From: a virus
Strand: one strand, 5' to 3'
DNA length: 52,695 nucleotides
IMG/VR virus record: IMGVR_UViG_3300047994_000145
Position numbers and translations under genes: made by a program. The notes under the pieces are model-generated. The model saw only the letters and a list, made by a program, of their open reading frames with translations, made no database searches and was not told the origin of the DNA. Below, one piece after another: positions 3,310 through 52,695 of this stretch (the stretch's first letter is position 1; each line of letters opens with the position of its first letter).

Positions 3310-4281
3310 ATGGCTGATTACAACAGTTCGTTACCCGTTAGAACACAAAACAACGGCGATGTAGTTATAGAGTTAGCAGACGGCACTACACCGTCTCAGA
3401 AAGCTGCAGTTAATGCCTCAGGCTCGGTACAGATAGCCGGTCAAGGCGTTGCAGGAACACCCGCAGGCGGTGTAGTGTCTGTTCAAGGTGTTAGCGGTGG
3501 GACCACGCTTCCTATTAGTGGTTCGGTTACAGCTAACCAAGGAACAGCAGCTGCTTTGTCAGGTGCATGGCCAGTAGAGATCACAGATGGAACTAACATC
3601 TTAGGCTCTGCTGCTCACCCTGTACGTATTGATCCCACAGGAACAACCACACAGCCAGTTAGCGGTACAGTAGCCGTTAGCTCGGTGTCTGGAACGGTTG
3701 CTGTGACTCAAAGCACATCACCCTGGGTTGACAATATCACACAGATTGGTGGATCTGCAATTGCATTAGGTCAGACTACAATGTCTGCTTCTTTGCCCGT
3801 TGCTATCGCTTCTAACCAATCTAACTTGCCAAACAACATCGTACAGATTAGTGGTGCATCACCAAGTGCATCTAACAGTTTGCCGATCCAGATTAGCACT
3901 GGAGCCGCATTCGTTAGTGCTTCAAACCCCCTTCCTGTCACTATTGACCCTGCTGCCGCTGGAACACCTAAGAACTATTATACAGACTCCGCAGCAGTAG
4001 CTGTAGGCTCTAGTGCTACCCAAAGTACGACTGCTGCCGGTGTTACTGGATTCTACTTGCAATCTGTTATTTTATCAGGTTCAGGTAAATTCAAAGCGGT
4101 TATTCAAATCGGCGGAACGTCATATGCAGCTGTTTTCAACAGCACTGCAACGCCAACTGTTCAGATTAACTTCCCAAACAACACCTTAGTTGCTACGGGA
4201 ACGACAGTTGCTGCAATTATGACCAACAACGATTTGGCTGCCCAGGATTTATACAGTACGTTCATTGGGTTCCAAGTATAA
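3310..4281 (+). CDS. Fibre-like structural protein (323 aa)
   Basis: GGAGA RBS; Gly/Ser/Thr/Ala/Val-rich with repeated SG(T/S)VAV segments. Confidence 0.65.
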   Translation: MADYNSSLPVRTQNNGDVVIELADGTTPSQKAAVNASGSVQIAGQGVAGTPAGGVVSVQGVSGGTTLPISGSVTANQGTAAALSGAWPVEITDGTNILGSAAHPVRIDPTGTTTQPVSGTVAVSSVSGTVAVTQSTSPWVDNITQIGGSAIALGQTTMSASLPVAIASNQSNLPNNIVQISGASPSASNSLPIQISTGAAFVSASNPLPVTIDPAAAGTPKNYYTDSAAVAVGSSATQSTTAAGVTGFYLQSVILSGSGKFKAVIQIGGTSYAAVFNSTATPTVQINFPNNTLVATGTTVAAIMTNNDLAAQDLYSTFIGFQV

Positions 4282-4298: not shown

Positions 4299-5165
4299 AT
4301 GGGCGACATAGTATCACGTTTACCTACACAAGACCAATCAGACGGTGCTACCGGTGCAGCCATACCCTCGGAAGCCATACTAGTAGGTGGCACGGATGGA
4401 ACAAACCTCCGTGCCATTTCCACTAGTTCAACAGGGATTGTTAACGTAGAACAACCTATCCAAACGGTTACAGGCACTTTAACAAATGGATCGTCTGTGG
4501 TCACAATGACCATGCAGGGCGCAGGTGCTGTAAACATAGATGTATCTGGTTCTGGTTTTGTAGGAACCATAACGGTAACTGAAAATACCCCATCGTCTGC
4601 CAGAGTGTTAGGTGTATTTGCATTGAATGGTAGCGCTATTGCATCTAGTATCACTGCAAACGGCACTTATAGGGTAATAGGTGTGCCAGTGGCTCCTACT
4701 ATATCGGTTCAGTTCAGTTCGTATACTTCAGGCTCGGCTACCATTTACATCTATGCTTCAGCCGCAACCTACATTGTTCAGCCTTACAACTCAAATGCAG
4801 CAAATTTACAAACAACTACATACCTAAACGATGGATCAGGCAATTCAATCAGTTCAGTTAACAACGCACTAACCGTTAATACTAAATCACCTTTAACTTT
4901 TTCAGCTCCAACTACTGCCACGGTGAATACAACTTCCACTTTAATATTAGCAGCTAACACGGCTAGAAGAGGGTTGTGTTTAAGCAACACCAGTCCTCAG
5001 CAAATATCACTTGGATTTAATGGAAACGCTGCATCCTACCAAAACGGAATTACACTATTCCCCGGTGAGAAGTTTCTTATGGACGAGTACTCATTCAGCA
5101 CTGGAGCAATATATGCGGTGACTACAGGTGCTACTACCTATATTGGCGTACAGGAGATGACCTAA
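4299..5165 (+). CDS. Fibre-like structural protein (288 aa)
   Basis: AGAGGG RBS; beta-rich Ser/Thr/Asn composition. Confidence 0.65.
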   Translation: MGDIVSRLPTQDQSDGATGAAIPSEAILVGGTDGTNLRAISTSSTGIVNVEQPIQTVTGTLTNGSSVVTMTMQGAGAVNIDVSGSGFVGTITVTENTPSSARVLGVFALNGSAIASSITANGTYRVIGVPVAPTISVQFSSYTSGSATIYIYASAATYIVQPYNSNAANLQTTTYLNDGSGNSISSVNNALTVNTKSPLTFSAPTTATVNTTSTLILAANTARRGLCLSNTSPQQISLGFNGNAASYQNGITLFPGEKFLMDEYSFSTGAIYAVTTGATTYIGVQEMT

Positions 5166-6240: not shown

Positions 6241-6420
6241 TTACGAGTCTTTATTTTCATAATTTTTTATTATATCTTTAGGTACGATAGGCACAAAAGG
6301 TAGTGATTTCTTATTGTTATAGCAATCATCGCACCAATACTCTGAGTACACCGCTTTATTCTTTATCCCGTGAGCCGCTACAGTGCTTTCTTTTCCACAT
6401 TTACATTTATCATTATTCAT
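6241..6420 (-). CDS. Small Cys-rich protein (59 aa)
   Basis: Minus-strand ATG at 6420. CKC...CDDC motifs. Its stop abuts the stop of 6004..6240. Confidence 0.45.
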   Translation of the reverse strand: MNNDKCKCGKESTVAAHGIKNKAVYSEYWCDDCYNNKKSLPFVPIVPKDIIKNYENKDS

Positions 6421-6655
6421 GTTTTATCTCCGTGTAACCATAGAATTTTGTTATAATATCTATATTCTTTTTTAACCCTTCCGTCATTCCTTCAATCTCA
6501 GCGATCCAATAAGCCACCACAATGCAAGGGCATCCGCTTGCTATGGCCATAATCGCGATGGCTTCGTCTACGCCGGTGTGGTCTCTATTGGTCTCATACC
6601 ATTTCTGAACAAAGCTCTTTCTCTCAGCACTGTATCGACTTAAATCTTCAATCAC
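6413..6655 (-). CDS. Hypothetical protein with one hydrophobic segment (80 aa)
   Basis: ORF track; overlaps the lysozyme stop; AIAIMAIASGCPCIVVAYWI segment. Confidence 0.55.
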   Translation of the reverse strand: MIEDLSRYSAERKSFVQKWYETNRDHTGVDEAIAIMAIASGCPCIVVAYWIAEIEGMTEGLKKNIDIITKFYGYTEIKHE

Positions 6656-7104
6656 GTGATCTCCTCAGTTACAGGTTTTTCAAACAATTCCTTCTCAGCT
6701 TGCCTTCTGGCTACCAACCCCGGTACAATATGAGGTCCAACGTGTACCCACTTTAAAAACTCGCGGGATGCGCCTTCGTAGTCACCTTCTTTAACTTTCT
6801 TAAGCAGTGTTGAATTTTGCAACGTTCCTAACCCTAAGTTATATGCAAAGCATACCAAGGATGAAAATTGGTTGTCATTGCAGATTATGGCAGGACCTAG
6901 TAGCGTCTTAGTTCCATTAGAAAAACTCATCAAATCTGTCATCAGCAGGGTGTCTGCCATTTCTTGGGTTATGGTCTCACCTTCTAACATATCTGTTCGG
7001 TGACCGTATCCTACTGTAGGCAGCCCTCCCACATCTAGGTACACTTGCAGCCTGCACCCTTCAAATTTCTTAATAAGTTCAATACCTTCGTTACTCAATT
7101 CCAT
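6652..7104 (-). CDS. Endolysin, T4-lysozyme-like (glycoside hydrolase family 24)
   Basis: IELIKKFEGCRLQVYLDVGGLPTVGYGH gives the Glu...Asp...Thr catalytic pattern. Start set at the Met preceded by GGAGA (the ORF track extends to 7170). Confidence 0.85.
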   Translation of the reverse strand: MELSNEGIELIKKFEGCRLQVYLDVGGLPTVGYGHRTDMLEGETITQEMADTLLMTDLMSFSNGTKTLLGPAIICNDNQFSSLVCFAYNLGLGTLQNSTLLKKVKEGDYEGASREFLKWVHVGPHIVPGLVARRQAEKELFEKPVTEEIT

Positions 7105-7519
7105 AATTTCTCCATTCACTGTTAAACTTAATATATTCATAGTTTTTAATAAATTCAGGATAATCAGCAAACATAAGAATTTCCTTTGTGTATTGAGGCC
7201 AGTGTCTTAAAGCGATATGATAAGCCCTGCTGTATACGAAACGCCGCCATTTATGCATGATAAATCCTAATAAAAACGTGATTACAGGAGTGAACACTTT
7301 TATATCTAAATATATCAACCAGTTAGGAAAGGCATAGTAATGTAAGTTAGGGTAGATCAGCGAATGTAAACTCAGTTCTGTAAACACAGTGTCTACTATA
7401 ACGATGCCGTATTTTTCTTTGCATTGAGTGTTTATTCTGCCCCACTTGGAACAATAATTTCCTATAAAACTTGCTATCTTATCTAACTCGTAGTAATCAC
7501 AATTACTTAATGCTTTCAT
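7091..7519 (-). CDS. Hypothetical membrane protein (142 aa); possible holin-like partner of the lysozyme
   Basis: TM segment VFTPVITFLLGFIM; lies directly upstream of the endolysin. Start at the Met preceded by GGGAG. Confidence 0.5.
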   Translation of the reverse strand: MKALSNCDYYELDKIASFIGNYCSKWGRINTQCKEKYGIVIVDTVFTELSLHSLIYPNLHYYAFPNWLIYLDIKVFTPVITFLLGFIMHKWRRFVYSRAYHIALRHWPQYTKEILMFADYPEFIKNYEYIKFNSEWRNYGIE

Positions 7520-7542
7520 ATATACTCCCATAAAGCCAAAGG

Positions 7543-7563
7543 AGGGGCCATTCCCTGGCCCCT
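7543..7563 (-). terminator. GC-rich hairpin (8-bp stem AGGGGCCA/TGGCCCCT) between the protease and the downstream genes
   Basis: On the minus strand the hairpin is followed by CCTTTGGCTTT. The U-tract is interrupted, so at best this is a partial terminator. Confidence 0.35.
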
Positions 7564-7580
7564 GTTGCCTATCCCGTTGC

Positions 7581-8516
7581 CTATTTCGAGTAGATTAGGT
7601 CATCTGATTTAAGCAGTTCCAACACTTCTTTACATGCCTGTTTTTGTTTTTCATTTAAGTTAATCGTTTGACAACGTTTTTTAACTTCATCTTTATCGAC
7701 AGTACTTCCTGATGAAGTCTGGAATAAACTGTCAGTATTAGGTTTTTGTTCTTCAACTGTTTTAATTTCATTGTCTAAAAACATATGAATATACTCAAGA
7801 GGGACGATGTAACCAAAAGCCATTTCTCCACTACCAGCAAAAACTACTCCAGCTATGCTTTTATTAACATCAAACACAGGTGACCCTGATGATCCAGGTT
7901 GAATAAGAGCTGATATGGCTTGTGCTTCATAGGCTTGAATCACAGGTACACCTCCAAAAAAAGCACATATGCTCCCTAAAACAGGATCGGTTAATTCTTC
8001 AGGTGTACAAGCCCTTAACCCAGTACCTACATGGATGAGTCGTTTTTCTGAGAATTTACCAGAAGTCAAGATTATAGGCATCAGCATAGGATGACCTATA
8101 ACAGTAGCATCGTCTAAGACTTGTGGGTAGGTATTTGATATAGTCGCTGAAGTTCCTAAGTTGTTGGATACTTTTATCACACATAGATCGTGTAAACTTG
8201 ATTTTTTATAAGATAGTACATATCCGGTGTTGTGAATTGAGGACACGACACCGCCATGTTCTACTACTCTACAAACATGGGCATTAGTGAGTACCTTTGT
8301 AAAATCGTCGGCAGTCTCGATAATAGCCCCACTACCACCTGAATTTTTTGCCAGGTTAGTTACCATCACGGAAGAGTCCGGCGAGTACCCCTTTACAGGC
8401 AATAACAGCCTTACCACAAGCTCAAATACCACTACCACAGTCAATAGGCCTGCTGCCATCAAAAAGCCGTACAGTAGCCTTGTAATTGGTTTTAAAACTC
8501 TATTGTTTTTTTCCAT
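7581..8516 (-). CDS. Membrane-anchored trypsin-like (S1, chymotrypsin-fold) serine protease
   Basis: N-terminal TM segment (LLYGFLMAAGLLTVVVVFELVV). Catalytic-triad contexts TNAHV, HDLCVIKV and GSSGSPVF. Confidence 0.8.
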   Translation of the reverse strand: MEKNNRVLKPITRLLYGFLMAAGLLTVVVVFELVVRLLLPVKGYSPDSSVMVTNLAKNSGGSGAIIETADDFTKVLTNAHVCRVVEHGGVVSSIHNTGYVLSYKKSSLHDLCVIKVSNNLGTSATISNTYPQVLDDATVIGHPMLMPIILTSGKFSEKRLIHVGTGLRACTPEELTDPVLGSICAFFGGVPVIQAYEAQAISALIQPGSSGSPVFDVNKSIAGVVFAGSGEMAFGYIVPLEYIHMFLDNEIKTVEEQKPNTDSLFQTSSGSTVDKDEVKKRCQTINLNEKQKQACKEVLELLKSDDLIYSK

Positions 8517-8534
8517 TCTATACCTCTACTTTCA

Positions 8535-8562
8535 TAGTTACACACTTTTATCAAAAAGTCAA
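8535..8562 (-). promoter_or_regulatory. Possible sigma70-type promoter for the protease gene (TTGACT-16 nt-TAACTA)
   Basis: Read on the minus strand; resembles the plus-strand promoter family. The -10 box is weak. Confidence 0.35.
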
Positions 8563-8723
8563 GCTTTTTGATAAGGCCTTGTGTGTTCTTTACACCTGCT
8601 CGTACCCCCTACTGACTTTACGTTGCAAAGGTAAACATTGCAAAGATAAGTTGGCACTACCACAGGATCCGGTTTTTTCCCTTTCATTTTCATTACATAG
8701 AACTTAATATCTTCAATTTTCAT
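8559..8723 (-). CDS. Small Cys-rich protein (54 aa)
   Basis: GGAGGA RBS 4 nt upstream of the ATG. Translation MKIEDIKFYVMKMKGKKPDP...CKEHTRPYQKA. Confidence 0.5.
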   Translation of the reverse strand: MKIEDIKFYVMKMKGKKPDPVVVPTYLCNVYLCNVKSVGGTSRCKEHTRPYQKA

Positions 8724-8732
8724 ACATCCTCC

Positions 8733-8834
8733 TTATTGTAAATAACCATTAAAATATAAAGTTGCTGCCTTAACAAGTAAACAAAGTAATAACATTACTA
8801 AAAAGTACATGTAACCTGCTTCTATCCTAGTCAT
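8733..8834 (-). CDS. Hydrophobic mini-protein, copy 1 (33 aa, MTRIEAGYMYFLVMLLLCLLVKAATLYFNGYLQ)
   Basis: GAGGGAG RBS; single TM-like core; paralog of 8862..8951. Confidence 0.45.
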   Translation of the reverse strand: MTRIEAGYMYFLVMLLLCLLVKAATLYFNGYLQ

Positions 8835-8861
8835 AAATTCTATCTCCCTCTTATTGTACCA

Positions 8862-8951
8862 CTAAAATATAAAAGTTGCTGCCTTAACAAGTAAACAAAG
8901 TAACAACGTTAGTAAAAAGAATGTGTCTAAACCTGGTTCTATCTTATTCAT
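8862..8951 (-). CDS. Hydrophobic mini-protein, copy 2 (29 aa, MNKIEPGLDTFFLLTLLLCLLVKAATFIF)
   Basis: Same GAGGGAGATAGAATTT leader as copy 1. A 1-nt indel relative to copy 1 shortens the C-terminus. Confidence 0.4.
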   Translation of the reverse strand: MNKIEPGLDTFFLLTLLLCLLVKAATFIF

Positions 8952-9050
8952 AAATTCTATCTCCCTCTCGCCTTATAAGTATTGCATCAGGAGTGCCACA
9001 TAATCATCAATAAAATCAACACCGCTCTCAGTAAAAGCTGTACATGTGCG

Positions 9051-9079
9051 TTGACAGTGTAAAAAGCTTATACTATTTA
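9051..9079 (+). promoter_or_regulatory. Sigma70-type promoter (TTGACA-17 nt-TATTTA)
   Basis: Hexamers and spacer read directly. First of two tandem promoters facing the ORF-free island. Confidence 0.5.
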
Positions 9080-9088
9080 AAATAATGC

Positions 9089-9117
9089 TTGACTTTTCCA
9101 TTCACCTATGCTAGGGT
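9089..9117 (+). promoter_or_regulatory. Sigma70-type promoter (TTGACT-17 nt-TAGGGT, with TGc extended -10)
   Basis: Same architecture as the other ten plus-strand promoters. Confidence 0.5.
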
Positions 9118-9123
9118 AATTAT

Positions 9124-9440
9124 TGACACCGGGGGATACCGGTGACAGTGAGAAGTTGCAGAGTTTGCGCATATACTTCTCATGGGCTGTATAGCCTCCA
9201 GCGCAAGCTGTAGCATAGTCTTGATAGGCACTCTCTAGTCAAGGCATATCCAGTGGAAACCTCAGCATGCCCCGTCTGTTAGGAGCTGCTAGCTGGTAGG
9301 GACACATGGTATGCGTAGTGAATACCTATAGCGCCATGTCTAGATACGGATATAGCCTGTATACCCTAGGCCAGTGTTTTATAAGTAAAAGCTGTAGTAC
9401 TATAACCTACAGGATAATACTTACCTACAGAGGCTATATC
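9124..9440 (+). ncRNA. Candidate structured non-coding RNA (alternatively an origin region)
   Basis: No ORF of 60 aa or more in any frame between 8708 and 9593. GC is visibly higher than in the flanks. Multiple hairpins, including a GCAA tetraloop, and a 10-bp long-range helix 9189-9198/9430-9439. Confidence 0.4.
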
Positions 9441-9543
9441 TTATCTAATAATAATTAATTCAATCTTTAGTGTATTCCTATGCGCCCCCATCTATTGAGA
9501 AAGAAAAAAAAACAACAATAACAACTTAACAGTTAAAAAAAAG

Positions 9544-9572
9544 TTGACTATTAAATTGTTACATGTTATTCT
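9544..9572 (+). promoter_or_regulatory. Early promoter (TTGACT-17 nt-TATTCT, with TGt extended -10)
   Basis: Lies 21 nt upstream of the first early gene, which has an SD. Confidence 0.6.
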
Positions 9573-9593
9573 AATAATAGAAAGAAGGTAGAT

Positions 9594-9965
9594 ATGAAAA
9601 AAAGTATAAGTTTAGAGCAATTTGCAGATGAAGTTAGTAAAGAGTTACATAAAACCTTTAAAAATCAAGCAACTGACTTAGAAGACAAAGATAAAGCCAT
9701 CATGCTGATAGAAGCAGAATTCATAACTGCTTTTGTTAATACCGTCCTGGCAGAAGTGTTAAGAGACAACCCTAAGTATGAACTTGAAACTAGAGACTTA
9801 GTTAGCTACGTGACCGCTCGGTATGCCGCGGTTAAATTTAACATTTTAAATGCAGTGGCTGAAGGTTTCTCAAAAGCACTGTCGCAATTTGCAAATCGTG
9901 ATGCAATGTTTTACTGCAACCTAGAACAGGTAGACGAAAACTTTTTAAGTGAAACGGACCATTAG
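9594..9965 (+). CDS. Hypothetical early protein (123 aa)
   Basis: GAAGG RBS; first gene after the early promoter. Confidence 0.65.
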   Translation: MKKSISLEQFADEVSKELHKTFKNQATDLEDKDKAIMLIEAEFITAFVNTVLAEVLRDNPKYELETRDLVSYVTARYAAVKFNILNAVAEGFSKALSQFANRDAMFYCNLEQVDENFLSETDH

Positions 9966-12226: not shown

Positions 12227-13109
12227 ATTTAATATGGATAAGCTCGTCAGCGACGTCAAAAAACAATTTAAAGACGAGAAGTTATCTAACAAATTAGGAA
12301 CTGGTAATAAGTTAAAACAGCTAGGAGAAGGTGATTTTCTTAAGATGCCTCAATGGTGGGTTGAGGCCACTAACACACCAGGGCTGCCGTATGGAGCAGG
12401 TGTTCAGTTTGCTGGTAAAACTGACAGTGGTAAAACTTCGGCCGCCTTAGAAGCAATCAAAGCAGCCCAAGAGCAAGAGCATGCAGTTATTTACATTGAA
12501 ACCGAAAACAAAACATCGGAACGAGATTTGATCAACAAAGGTATAGATCCTAAGCAGATAGCAATTATTCGGACAACAGTGGCAGAAGAAGCATTTGATA
12601 TGTTATTTGAACTTTGGGATGGTGTAAAAAACAGCTACCCCGATGCTCCTATGCTTATCGTGTGGGACTCTTTTGGAAATATGGTATCACAACGAGATTC
12701 TGAGCTCACTATGTTAGACGGTAAACAAAAGCCAGGTGGCAAAGGATCAGCTAACAGATTAGGTCTTAGTAAACTCATTGCTAAAATGGAGCAATCCTCT
12801 AAGGTTGCTTTGTTTCTTGTAAACTATACTTATGCCAATCTTGGTTCACCAGGAAGAACTAATGCAGGCGGTGAAGCCTTAGGAATGCTGTCCTCCCTCA
12901 TATACCAGACAGCTAGAAGAAGCTGGCTTGAGAAGACAGTAAAAGGAGAAAAAGTGAGGATCGGCGCTCAAGTGCAGTGGACCCTGTATAAAAATCACAT
13001 TTATAAAGATAATCCAGGTCCTAAGCAAGTGTTAGTTAATATCACTTCTTCAGGATTAGAAGTTGTTGGAAAAATAAATAGTCCAGATTCAAGCAATGAG
13101 GAGGAATGA
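12219..13109 (+). CDS. RecA-superfamily ATPase; candidate recombinase or annealing-accessory protein
   Basis: GLPYGAGVQFAGKTDSGKTSAALEA (Walker A in a RecA-like context); MLIVWDSFG (Walker B). Confidence 0.6.
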   Translation: MTKFNMDKLVSDVKKQFKDEKLSNKLGTGNKLKQLGEGDFLKMPQWWVEATNTPGLPYGAGVQFAGKTDSGKTSAALEAIKAAQEQEHAVIYIETENKTSERDLINKGIDPKQIAIIRTTVAEEAFDMLFELWDGVKNSYPDAPMLIVWDSFGNMVSQRDSELTMLDGKQKPGGKGSANRLGLSKLIAKMEQSSKVALFLVNYTYANLGSPGRTNAGGEALGMLSSLIYQTARRSWLEKTVKGEKVRIGAQVQWTLYKNHIYKDNPGPKQVLVNITSSGLEVVGKINSPDSSNEEE

Positions 13110-15732: not shown

Positions 15733-15936
15733 ATGTGTCCAATAAGTCCAGTATTTAAAAATCGAAAAGATAATAAGTACTATCACTGGGATGAGACGGG
15801 CTTAGTAGAAATAGGTCCATTTAGTGATGAGGAGGAAGCCGTAACAGCTTCGTATAAATATTCTGTATCGTTGGATAATGAACGTGTTGATTCTTCTAGC
15901 ATTTACAAAGAAAAGGAAGATAAACGTGGCCTTTAA
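15733..15936 (+). CDS. Hypothetical protein (67 aa)
   Basis: GGGAGAGG RBS before the internal Met. The ORF track starts at an upstream TTG. Confidence 0.5.
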   Translation: MCPISPVFKNRKDNKYYHWDETGLVEIGPFSDEEEAVTASYKYSVSLDNERVDSSSIYKEKEDKRGL

Positions 15937-16309
15937 AAAGGGTATCAAGAATCCTAGGGTAAATAAACGAGAACAAGGGCTTTTAAAAGGAGCTCTAAGG
16001 CGTGTTTTTGCTAGGTCTGAACTGCGTAACAAAGTGTTAAAAGCTGCTATTGTAAAGCACAGTGATAGCAGTAGACCTAGGGTTAAGACTTGGGTTAAAT
16101 GTAAAGAGTGTGGCAAATTAGAGGCTAAAAGTTACATGGTAGTAGATCACATTGATCCTCTTATTCCGCTTAATTCCTCTTTTGAAGAAATGAGTGTTGA
16201 CGAAGTAATTAATAGGCTCTGGTGTGACGAGAAGAACCTACAAGTGCTGTGTAAAGATTGTCATAATATTAAGACTAAACAAGAAACTAAAATAAGGAGG
16301 AAAAAATGA
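15878..16309 (+). CDS. HNH endonuclease
   Basis: CKECG...VVDHIDP...CKDCHNIKT (HNH with flanking Cys pairs). The true start is uncertain; a GTG at 15926 is possible. Confidence 0.75.
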   Translation: MNVLILLAFTKKRKINVAFKKGIKNPRVNKREQGLLKGALRRVFARSELRNKVLKAAIVKHSDSSRPRVKTWVKCKECGKLEAKSYMVVDHIDPLIPLNSSFEEMSVDEVINRLWCDEKNLQVLCKDCHNIKTKQETKIRRKK

Positions 16310-24427: not shown

Positions 24428-25318
24428 ATGTATTTATATGCACTGTCGATTCTATGGCCAATTGTAAAGAAAAAAAAGAAGCTAACTGCTTATGTGTTAA
24501 TGAGCTTATTGGCTCTAATCGCACTTTCGGTTGCTTTTAACAAATGGCGCGGTTTCTTTTATGATAACATACAGTTATACAACGTTAAGAACGTTTGGAT
24601 TGGGATAGGTGTGTTTATCGTACTAGCATTAATCAACGTGGTTGTTTACGGAATATCTTCTTATTACACAAGATTTTTAGAATTCAGCATCCGAGAATCT
24701 TTGTACCATACGCTATGTGATAAGATAATGGGCTCAGACGTTCCTAATAAAGACCAGCGATTACAAGAAGATACTCTTAGATTTGGACGCACTATTCTTG
24801 CTTTAATTAAAGCGGTAGTAGATTCAGTGGTTAGACTACCTGTATTTTTAATCGTATTATGGTCGGTAGCTCCTTTTTGGATGGTGATCGTGTCCGTTGT
24901 ATATGCTGTAATAGGCACTTTGGGTAGTAGAAAAGTAGCTGCTAGACTAGTGGACTTAGAATACATACAAGAAGCGAAGGAAGCAACTTTGAGAAGAAAT
25001 ATTATTAAGGCTGTGGAGGAAACCACCGCTTTCCCGACTTTGGATGAGATCAAAGAAAACTGGACAGCCTTAGCAGTGAGAAATAAGCTTCTCAGCTATT
25101 ACACTAGCTTTTACGGACAAATAGCTGTTATATTCCCGTACGTTATGTTGTTGCCTATGTACCTACACCACGCAATAATGCTAGGAGTATTGTTTCAGAC
25201 CAGTAGCGCCATCGAACAAGTGTTATCAAGTTTAAGTGTTTTTGTTGATAGCAGGGATCTCGTAGTTGATTTGCAAATGATTACAAAACGTATTAAAGAA
25301 TTAGATAAAAAAGCTTGA
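24428..25318 (+). CDS. SbmA/BacA-like integral membrane protein (ABC-type transmembrane-domain fold, no ATPase domain)
   Basis: Multiple TM segments. NKDQRLQEDTLRFGRT resembles the SbmA_BacA signature as I recall it from E. coli SbmA (QRVQEDTMRF). The C-terminal amphipathic helix is also similar. Confidence 0.5.
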   Translation: MYLYALSILWPIVKKKKKLTAYVLMSLLALIALSVAFNKWRGFFYDNIQLYNVKNVWIGIGVFIVLALINVVVYGISSYYTRFLEFSIRESLYHTLCDKIMGSDVPNKDQRLQEDTLRFGRTILALIKAVVDSVVRLPVFLIVLWSVAPFWMVIVSVVYAVIGTLGSRKVAARLVDLEYIQEAKEATLRRNIIKAVEETTAFPTLDEIKENWTALAVRNKLLSYYTSFYGQIAVIFPYVMLLPMYLHHAIMLGVLFQTSSAIEQVLSSLSVFVDSRDLVVDLQMITKRIKELDKKA

Positions 25319-32098: not shown

Positions 32099-32150
32099 TT
32101 TAGAGTTACTAAATTAAATCAAGAAGTTACATATAATTAAACCGCGTTGT

Positions 32151-32182
32151 TAGCTATAAGATACAATAAGTACTTATAGCTA
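32151..32182 (+). other. Intergenic hairpin (10-bp stem TAGCTATAAG/CTTATAGCTA, 12-nt loop)
   Basis: Perfect inverted repeat between portal and scaffold with no T-tract. Possibly an RNA processing or stability element. Confidence 0.4.
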
Positions 32183-32237
32183 AAAAATAACGCTGAAGCA
32201 ATAAACCGCAGACAATAAGTTTGCACATGGAGTATAT

Positions 32238-33480: not shown

Positions 33481-33834
33481 ATGTTTAGTGATAAACCCAT
33501 GATCATATATTTTGTCAGATTAAATGATGAAATAGTTTATATAGGGCAGTCGAAACTCTCTTTGGAAGCAAGAAAAAAACAACACGAATACAATGCACAA
33601 AGAGGCAAAGGATATGTGATAGGTGCAGGCTTAAGAAAGCACGGCGCTGATAAATTCACCTGGAACGTACACAGTGTGTACTACAACCAGGTAGACTTAG
33701 ATGCAGCGGAAAAACATTACATGTCTAAATACAAACCTAAGTATAACATTAACTTAGGAGGCGAAGGGCGAGGAGTTAGAAAAAAAGATTCTATAACTCC
33801 TTGGAACAAGGGTAAAAAAGGTATGCTGTCCTAA
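33481..33834 (+). CDS. GIY-YIG homing endonuclease, catalytic domain only (117 aa)
   Basis: IIYFVRLNDEIVYIGQS (GIY...YIG); the conserved Arg; AEKHYMSKYKPKYN. The ORF ends at PWNKGKKGMLS with no DNA-binding domain. Confidence 0.8.
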   Translation: MFSDKPMIIYFVRLNDEIVYIGQSKLSLEARKKQHEYNAQRGKGYVIGAGLRKHGADKFTWNVHSVYYNQVDLDAAEKHYMSKYKPKYNINLGGEGRGVRKKDSITPWNKGKKGMLS

Positions 33835-35318: not shown

Positions 35319-35353
35319 GTCATTTTTTCATAAAAAAATACACATAACAATCG

Positions 35354-35391
35354 AGGCCACTTAGTCGAAAGATTAGGTGGCCTTTTTTTTT
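35354..35391 (+). terminator. Rho-independent terminator after the capsid gene
   Basis: 13-bp stem (two G-U pairs), GAAA tetraloop, T9 tract. Confidence 0.85.
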
Positions 35392-35393
35392 AT

Positions 35394-37505: not shown

Positions 37506-37702
37506 ACAAGCTTTTTACATTGTCAACGCCTATATACACTCTTTCAATAAGACACACCTTGAAATTGTTAGATTTTGTTTGGCACCTTAAATGCAATAAG
37601 TATAAGTCAAGAGGGGCCACGGGTCATGCCTGGCTTAAATGATGCTTGCGACGACACCCGTCGGCAAGTGAGCACGCCCTCACAGATTAATTAGGAGGAC
37701 TT

Positions 37703-51480: not shown

Positions 51481-52695
51481 ATGAGCTTATATATAAGGTA
51501 CCCTTCAAATGGTGGCGGCTCTGGTGGAACAGTTACAAGTGTCGGTCTTGCTGATGGAAGTACAAAACCAATCTTTACAGTTTCAGGTTCACCGGTAACA
51601 GGATCTGGAACCTTAACCCTCACGTTACAAAATCAGAATGCAAACACAGTGTTTGCAGGTCCAGCAAGTGGAAGTGCTGCTCAGCCTACTTTCAGACCAT
51701 TAGTTGCTAATGATATTCCCAGTTTAAGTTATGTGTCATCTGTGACAGCATCAACTCCTTTGTTCTCTTCAGGAGGACTAAATCCTAACTTAACAATTCA
51801 AGTTGCTAACACTTCTCAGAGTGGGTATTTGTCTAGTACTGACTGGAACACTTTCAATAATAAACAAGCAAGTGGAAACTATATCACTGCCTTAACTGGT
51901 GATGCAACTGCTTCTGGACCAGGATCAGCAGCCTTAACACTAGCTACAGTCAATAGCAACATAGGCTCATTTGGCTCTAGCACTTCAATACCAAGTTTCA
52001 CAGTAAACGCTAAAGGTTTAATTACCGCTGCATCAGGAAATGCTGTAATAGCTCCGGCAAGTACATTATCAGGAACTACCCTAAACTCATCTGTGGTGTC
52101 ATCTTCTTTAACCTCCGTAGGAACCATCACATCCGGTACCTGGAATGGCACAACAATTGCTATAGCTAATGGTGGAACAGGTCAAACTTCTGCTAGCGCT
52201 GCTTTCAATGCCCTATCCCCTATAACAAGCACTGGTGATCTCATTGTCGGTAACGGTGTAAATAGTGCTACTCGATTGGGTATTGGATCTTCTAATCAAG
52301 TGCTAACTGTGTCAGGCGGGACAGCGGTATGGGCAAATCCTGCAACTAGTGGAACAGTCACCAGTGTTGCTCTTTCAGATTCTAGCACCTCACCTATCTA
52401 CACCGTCTCAGGATCACCTGTCACATCCTCAGGAACCTTAGCTCTAACGTTAAAAACTCAGAGTGCAAACACAGTGTTTGCAGGACCTTCATCAGGATCA
52501 GCAGCTCAGCCTACTTTCAGACCATTAGTTGCTAATGATATTCCCAGTTTAAGTTATGTGTCATCTGTGACAGCATCAACTCCTTTGTTCTCTTCAGGAG
52601 GACTAAATCCTAACTTAACAATTCAAGTTGCTAACACTTCTCAGAGTGGGTATTTGTCTAGTACTGACTGGAACACTTTCAATAATAAACAAGCA
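51481..52695 (+). CDS. Tail fibre protein, 5' part. It is open at the window end and continues at base 128 (equivalent to 2..1606). The full product is predicted to be 897 aa.
   Basis: ATG at 51481; 405 codons with no stop up to the window edge, by my own translation. Absent from the ORF track because it lacks a stop in the window. Confidence 0.85.
   Translation, partial: MSLYIRYPSNGGGSGGTVTSVGLADGSTKPIFTVSGSPVTGSGTLTLTLQNQNANTVFAGPASGSAAQPTFRPLVANDIPSLSYVSSVTASTPLFSSGGLNPNLTIQVANTSQSGYLSSTDWNTFNNKQASGNYITALTGDATASGPGSAALTLATVNSNIGSFGSSTSIPSFTVNAKGLITAASGNAVIAPASTLSGTTLNSSVVSSSLTSVGTITSGTWNGTTIAIANGGTGQTSASAAFNALSPITSTGDLIVGNGVNSATRLGIGSSNQVLTVSGGTAVWANPATSGTVTSVALSDSSTSPIYTVSGSPVTSSGTLALTLKTQSANTVFAGPSSGSAAQPTFRPLVANDIPSLSYVSSVTASTPLFSSGGLNPNLTIQVANTSQSGYLSSTDWNTFNNKQA
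51526..52695 (+). repeat. Tandem 825-nt (275-aa) fibre modules: A = 51526-52350; B = 52351-52695, continuing to about base 607 after the junction
   Basis: Landmarks recur at an 825-nt offset (ggaacagt 51526/52351; gacagcatca 51744/52569). One stretch of at least 190 nt is identical. Confidence 0.9.
52569..52695. repeat. Terminal overlap, identical to 1-127
   Basis: Direct comparison. Confidence 0.95.

Follow-up and report, generated by a model that had tools for sequence, protein, structure and literature searches.

The intergenic region described here lies in the window, IMG/VR virus record IMGVR_UViG_3300047994_000145, a stretch of 52,695 nucleotides (nt) that represents a complete phage genome, and it contains what is probably a folded, non-coding RNA of about 330 nt, encoded on the plus strand at 9122-9455. 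Since bases 1-127 of the window are identical to 52569-52695, the contig is, judged by its ends, closed, with a length of about 52.57 kb, and either circularly assembled or terminally redundant. Among the gene products of the phage are a DNA polymerase of family A and a T7-like primase-helicase, together with a terminase, RecA-like and SbcCD-like proteins and an SU10-type portal and capsid; ARAGORN detected no tRNA or tmRNA gene in the window. Nearly all genes are on the plus strand; a short block on the minus strand at 6241-8951 contains lysozyme, a trypsin-like protease and small membrane peptides, and the RNA sits in the gap between this lysis block and the first plus-strand early gene (9594-9965). 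A preliminary description of this DNA had given the non-coding gap as 887 base pairs (bp), but its strictly non-coding part is shorter, about 640 bp (8952-9593), as open reading frames (ORFs) for small peptides fill 8733-8951. The features of the gap are as follows.

8733-8834 and 8862-8951, minus strand: tandem ORFs heading the lysis block, each with a strong ribosome-binding site, for hydrophobic peptides of 29-33 amino acids (aa)
9052-9080, plus strand: weaker promoter-like site, TTGACA-17-TATTTA, read from the sequence
9089-9117, plus strand: promoter P2, TTGACT-17-TGC+TAGGGT, of the enriched phage consensus (sigma-70 type)
9122-9455, plus strand: probable structured non-coding RNA of about 334 nt, limits predicted from conserved sequence and an end-closing helix
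9478-9494, plus strand: unstructured C-rich word CCUAUGCGCCCCCAUCU, downstream of the RNA
9497-9543, no strand assigned: A-rich, AT-rich tract that separates the RNA from the early promoter
9544-9572, plus strand: early-operon promoter of the phage consensus, 22 nt ahead of the first gene

The RNA coincides with an island of raised GC content, which is 0.47-0.53 across 9100-9349 (100-nt windows) compared with 0.25-0.39 in the left and 0.20-0.34 in the right flank; the surroundings are at about 0.37. The local GC excess (+0.117) ranks fourth among the 300-nt windows of the genome, and the three higher ones lie in coding DNA. No ORF of at least 60 aa exists between 8723 and 9594, in agreement with the GC-elevated, ORF-free island that had been reported, and the island holds no ORF with a convincing ribosome-binding site. 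When all fetched loci were compared with it by tblastx, nothing below E = 0.078 was found in any frame, and the idea of a pseudogene was dropped on this result.

We derived the promoter consensus of the phage, TTGACTTTT..TGnTAnnnT, from aligned copies. The pattern TTGAC-N18-TAnnnT has 13 matches, 11 of them on the plus strand, where 3.0 are expected, and none of 100 shuffles reaches 13. Most plus-strand copies lie 7-22 nt ahead of an ORF start, whereas the copy at 9089-9117, P2, is followed by no ORF for about 470 nt; as read from its position, P2 would be the promoter of the RNA, whose start is predicted at about 9122-9125. Two promoters of the phage's own consensus had been proposed to point into the island. 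The site at 9089 stands, given the enrichment of its pattern, but the one placed at 9051 (9052-9080) fails the enriched consensus and is not conserved in the homologous locus described below.

A covariance model of 9123-9213 alone, which comprises four hairpins, was searched over all loci and gave one match, to the minus strand of L013 (27.8 bits, E about 7e-4); weak collinear blastn matches to this locus were seen as well. The same locus is contained in L096, the whole contig of IMG/VR 3300045051_000633 (13,144 nt), in which the homologous element occupies 12580-12929 on the plus strand and has a position, strand and promoter spacing equal to those in the window. L096 is syntenic with the window through tail genes (39-82% aa identity), lysozyme (50%), protease (42%) and further minus-strand genes up to an intergenic region that bears the element just ahead of the contig end at the early promoter. 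The counterpart of P2 in L096 is TTGACA-17-TGG+CAATAT, at equal distance from the first hairpin (H1). Both elements have in common a series of invariant words, in the 5' part AUUG, GAUACCG, ACAGU, CCUCCA, UGUAGCAUAG, GCAUAUC, GUUnnGAGCU, GGAC and GAAUrCC, and in the 3' part GAUAUAGCC, CCUAGG, AGUAAAA, UAAC, AUAAUACU and ACAGrGGCUAUAUCyUAyCkAAUAA, while the stems between these words differ in sequence between the window and L096. The parts of the RNA, all on the plus strand, are listed below.

9122-9125 with 9452-9455, plus strand: closing helix P1, AUUG with UAAU (AU UA UA GU in the window, AU UA UG GC in L096); tentative, 4 bp only
9127-9144, plus strand: hairpin H1, CACCGG/CCGGUG, 6 pairs, conserved loop word GAUACC
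9148-9183, plus strand: hairpin H2, 9-bp stem with an inner 4-bp stem, shortened to 6 bp in L096
9184-9197, plus strand: hairpin H3, GGGCU/AGCCU, then conserved CCUCCA; L096 stem GGGGAC/GUCCCU
9199-9210, plus strand: hairpin H4, CAGC-GCAA-GCUG, with a GNRA tetraloop; CACC-GAAA-GGUG in L096
9211-9217, plus strand: invariant single-stranded junction UAGCAUA, identical in both sequences
9218-9245, plus strand: hairpin H5, GUCUUGA/UCAAGGC, 7 pairs
9246-9340, plus strand: junction AUAUC and middle domain, with an irregular hairpin at about 9250-9296 (GUUnnGAGCU), then 9300-9340 (GGAC, GAAUrCC)
9341-9447, plus strand: 3' domain, comprising P8, P9, an inner helix and an apical hairpin
9341-9343 with 9445-9447, plus strand: P8, with A-U changed to C-G in L096
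9349-9357 with 9432-9440, plus strand: P9, GAUAUAGCC with GGCUAUAUC, 9 bp, invariant in both sequences
9382-9387 with 9418-9423, plus strand: inner 3' helix, with two swaps in the anchor-based reading and none in the computed pair table
9392-9397 with 9407-9412, plus strand: apical hairpin, stems differing and loop word UAAC kept

Comparison of the two sequences revealed that H1-H5, P8 and, in the anchor-based reading only, the inner 3' helix are kept by substitutions that preserve the predicted pairs. In H1, which reads GUGCGG/CCGCAU in L096, three of the six pairs are changed on both sides and none is broken. H2 has three pairs changed on both sides and retains its basal G.U and U-A pairs in both sequences, H3 has two such changes and retains its basal G.U, and H5 has three pairs changed on both sides and two on one side, including internal G.U pairs. 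In H4, one pair is swapped from G-C to C-G and the loop remains of the GNRA type (GCAA to GAAA); the hairpin had been recognised as GNRA-capped from the window alone. All six local stems named at that stage are present as written. A long-range helix of 10 bp (9189-9198 with 9430-9439) had been suggested to close the domain, and this pairing can be formed in the window but is not conserved, as H3 differs in L096; the alternative then offered for the same 3' strand, 9349-9357 with 9432-9440, is P9, whose 9 bp are invariant.

In the 5' domain, aligned by the model, all 28 pairs are standard in both sequences, nine are changed on both sides and none is broken. When the partners were slid by 1-3 columns, 0-2 both-side changes and 33-55% pairing remained, and two of 500 shuffles reach the observed values. 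For the full-length alignment we used the invariant words as anchors; MAFFT alignments misplaced the 5' hairpins, several anchors and GATATAGCC. On the anchored alignment RNAalifold yielded 75 pairs, 48 of them unchanged, eight changed on one side, 14 on both sides and five broken or gapped, compared with 0-2 both-side changes and 55-62 broken pairs in slid controls of the whole RNA. The plus-strand consensus energy is -66.9 kcal/mol versus -11.9 +/- 3.5 for column shuffles (z-score, z = -15.9), and the minus strand of the same alignment reaches -59.3 (z = -13.1). The alignment with a relative that had been proposed as a check for compensatory changes thus gave nine of 28 in the 5' domain and 14 of 75 overall, from two sequences and an alignment that is in part fitted to the structure. 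Paired substitutions between invariant single-stranded words point to a folded RNA and not to protein-binding repeats.

Single-sequence folding gives a more modest picture. The whole island has z = -1.68 on the plus and -3.40 on the minus strand, and the L096 element -2.43 and -2.95, respectively. The signal is located in the 5' 61 nt (H1 and H2, z = -3.9) and in the 3' hairpin (z = -2.7). In a genome-wide scan with regression on composition, windows of the island rank 2, 3 and 7 of 1048 in fold stability, ranks 2 and 3 being on the minus strand. The minimum free energy folds of the window RNA and of the L096 RNA, each computed on its own, predict H1-H5. The plus strand is indicated as the functional one by its conserved promoter, by the GNRA loops and conserved G.U pairs found on it and by a better consensus energy; read on the minus strand, the H4 loops are UUGC and UUUC. 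The middle domain (9250-9340) has conserved words, but its helices are only partly alignable and yield no clear common fold.

Several observations concern pairings that exclude one another. AUAUCC/GGAUAU in the window corresponds to AUAUCG/CGAUAU in L096, with a C-G to G-C swap, and this competing pairing excludes P9. The sites of mutually exclusive pairings are 9246-9251, 9348-9357, 9432-9440 and 9190-9196 in the window and 12687-12692, 12795-12805, 12904-12912 and about 12933-12947 in L096. In addition, the H3 hairpin of the window (GGGCUGUAUAGCCU) reappears nearly unchanged directly 3' of the RNA in L096. Together, the exclusive pairings and the displaced H3 copy could reflect a switch, a pseudoknot or a recombination scar.

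The distribution of the RNA was addressed in about 25 related contigs, gathered via the RecA-like protein and early proteins of 128 and 160 aa (protein identity 31-77%). Many of them share the divergent minus/plus layout, with gaps of 250-1265 nt, and the island is present in two. The model found no match in L068, L071, L073, L074, L078, L081, L082, L085, L087, L092, L103, L106 and L107. For the equivalent region of relatives, to which the preliminary description had looked as a check, the outcome is divided: it is conserved and non-coding in L096, whereas in most relatives, among the gaps read through, the sequence is unrelated to the island and mostly AT-rich (GC 0.25-0.39). The two-sequence model, run over 81 sources, detected no further member, and switching the filters off on the best candidate loci changed nothing. 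Of four pattern scans of IMG/VR and one of genomes, three with patterns from conserved blocks returned from IMG/VR only L096 and six chance loci, which the model rejected, and a 20-mer pattern found nothing in IMG/VR and one chance match within a coding region in genomes. A model match in L059 (E = 0.69) was rejected as it lies within a coding region, and the L071 and L082 gaps were rejected as divergent homologues in view of poor alignment, z = -0.6 to -1.5 and no model match with filters off. Judged by these searches, the family is one of two known members, and most relatives are without the element. The first early protein has a sole relative, in L064 (63% identity), a 1.9-kb contig that extends 265 nt upstream and does not contain the island; the protease encoded nearby is widespread, but its gene neighbourhood is often different.

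Neither the island nor its L096 copy could be assigned to a known RNA family; the preliminary description had likewise matched the island to no RNA class. Rfam 15 (4227 models, including 6S, tmRNA, RNase P, group I and II introns, riboswitches, GOLLD, ROOL, HEARO, OLE and C4) gave no match at the gathering threshold over the whole window, and at E <= 10 only chance matches of snoRNA or plastid type, at 14-21 bits, were obtained for 8900-9650 and likewise for 12450-13144 of L096. At the DNA level, we found no resemblance to cultured phages: INPHARED records gave no match to the island, to 25 kb of the window or to the counterpart in L096. Exact-protein look-ups returned only identical copies of the window phage from other samples.

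The stretch downstream of the RNA has no intrinsic terminator between 9125 and 9594, and none is obvious in L096; strong intrinsic terminators occur elsewhere in the window genome. The 106 nt at 9440-9545 fold at only -5.5 kcal/mol. The C-rich word CCUAUGCGCCCCCAUCU in this stretch, which in L096 is matched by TTCCTCCTCACCACCC at about 13039-13054, may serve as a loading site for Rho or be left over from the C-rich seed of a small RNA found in relatives. There, a recurrent small non-coding unit stands directly before the early promoter and points in the same direction as the early genes. It consists of a sigma-70-like promoter, a C/U-rich word resembling an anti-Shine-Dalgarno sequence (UCCCUCCUC, CUCCCACCUCC, or C-rich loop words) and a long terminator hairpin with z = -5.8 to -6.7, and on its sequence features looks like a conserved phage small RNA. 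All relatives without the RNA domain have a strong terminator before the early promoter; the window and L096 are without the terminator of the small unit and keep only a C-rich word (9478-9494 in the window). The small C-rich units are located as follows.

L078, 3538-3640
L081, 2113-2228
L071, 3236-3358
L082, 2795-2915
L085, 216-332
L073, 4685-4797
L064, about 140-207
L092, 3400-3535
L103, about 3470-3575

In four relatives (L068 3360-3430, L073 4346-4450, L074 3318-3410 and L087 1427-1500) we observed a promoter of perfect consensus (TTGACA-17-TATAAT/TACAAT) that is followed by a conserved, transcribed T-rich tract TTAGCCTTTTT..TTTTTTCTTT. L096 retains a T-rich tract containing TTAGCCTT past its RNA, and the window has an A-rich tract in the opposite orientation at 9497-9543.

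Considering the pair-preserving substitutions and the shared promoter, the structured-RNA reading of the island is supported, with a homologue in L096 at the same place and compensatory changes in H1-H5. That 9122-9455 is a conserved, structured RNA element of the plus strand we regard as highly likely. The fuller proposal, which we consider reasonably probable, is that it specifies a folded RNA of about 330 nt without a known family, which is driven by P2, made early and acts in trans as a protein-binding accessory. Host RNA polymerase would make the RNA upon entry of the DNA into the cell, and the 5' hairpin together with the end pairing 9122-9125/9452-9455 would stabilise and protect it. 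Its 3' end may form by Rho-dependent termination or by nuclease trimming in the C-rich, AU-rich unstructured stretch, which would explain the missing intrinsic terminator in a phage that has strong ones elsewhere. The RNA would then bind or titrate a host or phage protein, in host takeover or counter-defence, instead of being a core element of replication or packaging. We favour a stable trans-acting RNA with an early accessory role because the RNA is dispensable in relatives, most of which lack it and have a different small non-coding unit in its place, and because it sits where phages keep early accessory functions.

A number of points weigh against this proposal. The comparison comprises two sequences only, too few for covariation to be assessed properly, for example with R-scape, and since the 5' alignment was adjusted to the structure, both by cmsearch and manually, it is biased toward pairing. 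The single-sequence fold of the minus strand is at least equally good in both phages, the middle of the island folds no better than shuffles, and the middle third is without a resolved conserved structure. The start and the end of the RNA are predictions, and without a terminator a discrete RNA is not guaranteed, so that transcripts may run into the early operon. The trans-acting, protein-binding role, taken by itself, draws on context and distribution and is put forward tentatively.

The strongest competitor is that the folded domain acts in cis, as the 5' leader of early-operon transcripts that start from 9089, and serves mRNA stabilisation, nuclease processing or modification of RNA polymerase. 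The domain shares its strand with the early genes, the terminator that all island-less relatives possess is missing between 9125 and 9594, and the long imperfect P8/P9 helix would be a duplex of the type cut by RNase III. However, the early operon has its own consensus promoter (9544-9572), and likewise in L096, whose contig ends at it, so that a leader is not required for early expression. Moreover, conservation ends at about 9455 and the ends pair, as is typical of a discrete stable RNA, and about 90-200 nt of unconserved, unstructured sequence lie between the domain and the early promoter. We therefore consider a leader unlikely, though it deserves more weight than the explanations that follow.

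The preliminary description had held a replication origin with iterons, next to the A/T-rich tract at 9440-9545, to be an equally valid reading. In such an origin the promoters would prime or activate initiation, the island would provide iterons or hairpins and the A/T-rich tract would be the unwinding element. The models for this are phi1.1A/B of T7 with the AT-rich region, the T4 origins composed of a promoter and a DNA unwinding element, and the RNA II primer of ColE1. Consistent with an origin, the site lies between divergent transcription units, and the replication proteins of the phage include a T7-like primase-helicase and a polymerase of family A. The 150-nt stretch with the lowest GC content of the genome (0.22), likewise in keeping with an origin, starts at 9505; it lies about 390 nt from P2, however, and includes the early-operon promoter itself. 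Cumulative GC skew reaches its lowest value near 9 kb, but this coincides with the switch in gene strand, and plus-strand structural genes also have negative skew, so that the minimum is not diagnostic. In the equivalent gap of L073, three iteron-like copies of a word of about 20 nt, gacatattatagtatactta, occur at 4440-4530 with a spacing of about 30-40 nt; nothing comparable is present in the island of the window, where, by comparison with dinucleotide shuffles of 9125-9450, direct repeats (p = 0.59, 0.28 and 0.12 for k = 6, 7 and 8) and inverted repeats (p = 0.51, 0.44 and 0.10) are no more frequent than expected by chance, and AAAAGCTGTAG, the best word shared, has no genome-wide enrichment. 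Among relatives with the same replication genes, most lack the island, no antisense promoter of the RNA I kind stands above chance, and the substitutions preserve pairs, G.U pairs and GNRA loops on one strand, which points to RNA folding. An origin in place of the RNA is thus very improbable; one in the adjoining AT-rich tract may exist and would be a separate feature.

That the minus strand is the functional one, as a structured leader or antisense RNA read toward the lysis block, would fit the better single-sequence z in both phages and the composition-corrected ranks 2 and 3, but we give it hardly any credence: no leftward consensus promoter lies upstream of the island, the single internal 9/12 match (9148-9119) is no better than chance (5 promoter-like matches in the region versus 5.2 in shuffles), the conserved promoter is on the plus strand in both phages, and GNRA loops and conserved or internal G.U pairs are found only on that strand, which also has the better consensus energy. 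Equally remote is a functionless insert of foreign, GC-richer origin, such as a decayed gene or mobile-element remnant with chance hairpins, which would accord with the presence in two of about 25 contigs, with the fold of the middle part and with the 13-nt direct repeat AGTAAAAGCTGTA that flanks much of the island (9030, 9384), but not with conservation between phages that share only 40-50% protein identity, invariant words between pair-substituted stems, the dedicated conserved promoter ahead of the island or the lack of protein similarity in any frame. The exact copies of AGTAAAAGCTGTA (9030-9042 and 9384-9396) lie on either side of the promoters and of most of the RNA; the L071 gap has a match of 13 nt in the reverse orientation (2944-2956), and the repeat is not enriched genome-wide.

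Returning to the early, P2-driven RNA, we compared it with described systems. The early leader of T7 comprises several hundred untranslated nt between promoters A1-A3 and R0.3, the RNase III site that precedes gene 0.3. It resembles the present arrangement in having tandem early promoters for host polymerase, followed by non-coding folded RNA, at the start of the early region; unlike it, the early operon of the window has its own promoter past the element, the ends of the element pair and most relatives lack it. No similarity in sequence or structure to the T7 leader was found, in a comparison limited to Rfam. GOLLD and ROOL (as well as HEARO, OLE and raiA) likewise extend over several hundred nt with many helices and GNRA-capped hairpins, and like RNAs of this type the island RNA is without known function and was found comparatively in uncultured viral sequence. 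It differs from them in the lack of a match in Rfam, at the gathering threshold or at E <= 10, in being smaller than GOLLD and ROOL, and in not lying next to tRNAs. RNA II of ColE1 is promoter-driven, hundreds of nt long, begins with a series of stem-loops and runs toward an A/T-rich stretch, and the parallel extends to a genome with a family A polymerase; the island, in contrast, has no antisense RNA I unit and no sign of a persistent hybrid site, is missing in most relatives, and belongs to a phage with its own primase-helicase.

The pRNA of phi29 is also a phage-encoded folded RNA with an early promoter at the end of the gene map, whose structure is kept while the sequence drifts. Phages of the phi29 type have a protein-primed family B polymerase; the window phage, with a family A polymerase and an SU10-type portal and capsid, is not of this type, its RNA is twice as long, and close relatives with the same packaging genes are without it. 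In HK022, put consists of two stem-loops right after the early promoter that act on downstream terminators. Compared with this description, H1 and H2 directly follow the predicted start of the island RNA, whereas no terminator lies between it and the early genes. The small C-rich unit of the relatives occupies the same site and strand, is promoter-driven and non-coding, and its C-rich word has a downstream counterpart in the window and L096. It measures 70-150 nt, however, and is made of a C/U-rich word and one long terminator hairpin, whereas the island RNA is a multi-helix RNA of 330 nt without terminator and without common sequence. On balance, we rate the island RNA as a probable non-coding early transcript of the kind made by virulent phages, with a large conserved fold. 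A bolder view, to which we assign a low probability, is that the two sequences are the founding pair of a compact class of phage RNA of about 330 nt, with closed ends, a row of five hairpins, a GNRA cap and exclusive pairings among AUAUC, GAUAUAGCC and GGCUAUAUC, which would work by itself, be it as a ribozyme, as a conformational switch or as an RNA-only effector of host takeover or counter-defence, transcribed from the first early promoter of the phage.

Other features of the genome were observed alongside. The region of the peptide ORFs is a tandem duplication of 114-117 nt with 89-94% identity (units 8745-8851 and 8858-8968), and Logan contigs from several samples end at 8874 inside this repeat, that is, at an internal 114-nt repeat and not at a genome end. 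A core of 22 nt of the weaker promoter-like site (GCGTTGACAGTGTAAAAAGCTT, 9049-9070, plus strand) recurs with one mismatch at 37508-37529 on the minus strand, within plus-strand coding sequence. The 113 nt downstream of this copy fold unremarkably (z = -1.1), and a consensus promoter of the minus strand lies nearby at 37195-37167; the two sites may indicate antisense transcription near 37.5 kb. Two long hairpins account for the genome's other windows of strong folding: one after the capsid gene, at 35353-35392, where GAGGCCACCUAAUC-UUUC-GAUUAGGUGGCCUC and a U-run form a strong intrinsic terminator (z = -8.3) that is followed by a second hairpin, and one after the portal gene at 32140-32195 (z = -5.0). 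An SbmA/BacA-like inner-membrane transporter domain (Pfam PF05992, E = 2e-32) at 24428-25318 is unusual cargo and adjoins the DNA polymerase gene. Free-standing HNH and GIY-YIG endonuclease genes are present at 15878-16309 and 33481-33834, respectively; a consensus promoter precedes each of them, by 7 nt in the case of the GIY-YIG gene start and by about 170 nt in that of the HNH ORF.

Non-coding early transcripts are known from virulent phages, but very few of them have a defined fold or function, and new biochemistry has repeatedly come out of work on large, complex orphan RNAs. The weight of the present case is moderate, as the claim stands on two sequences. The element is an accessory module at the very start of the early region, the usual place of host-takeover and counter-defence functions. 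If the RNA is confirmed, it would offer a well-delimited molecule for structural and functional work, and the locus would be a hot spot of exchangeable RNA effectors in a group of uncultured phages.

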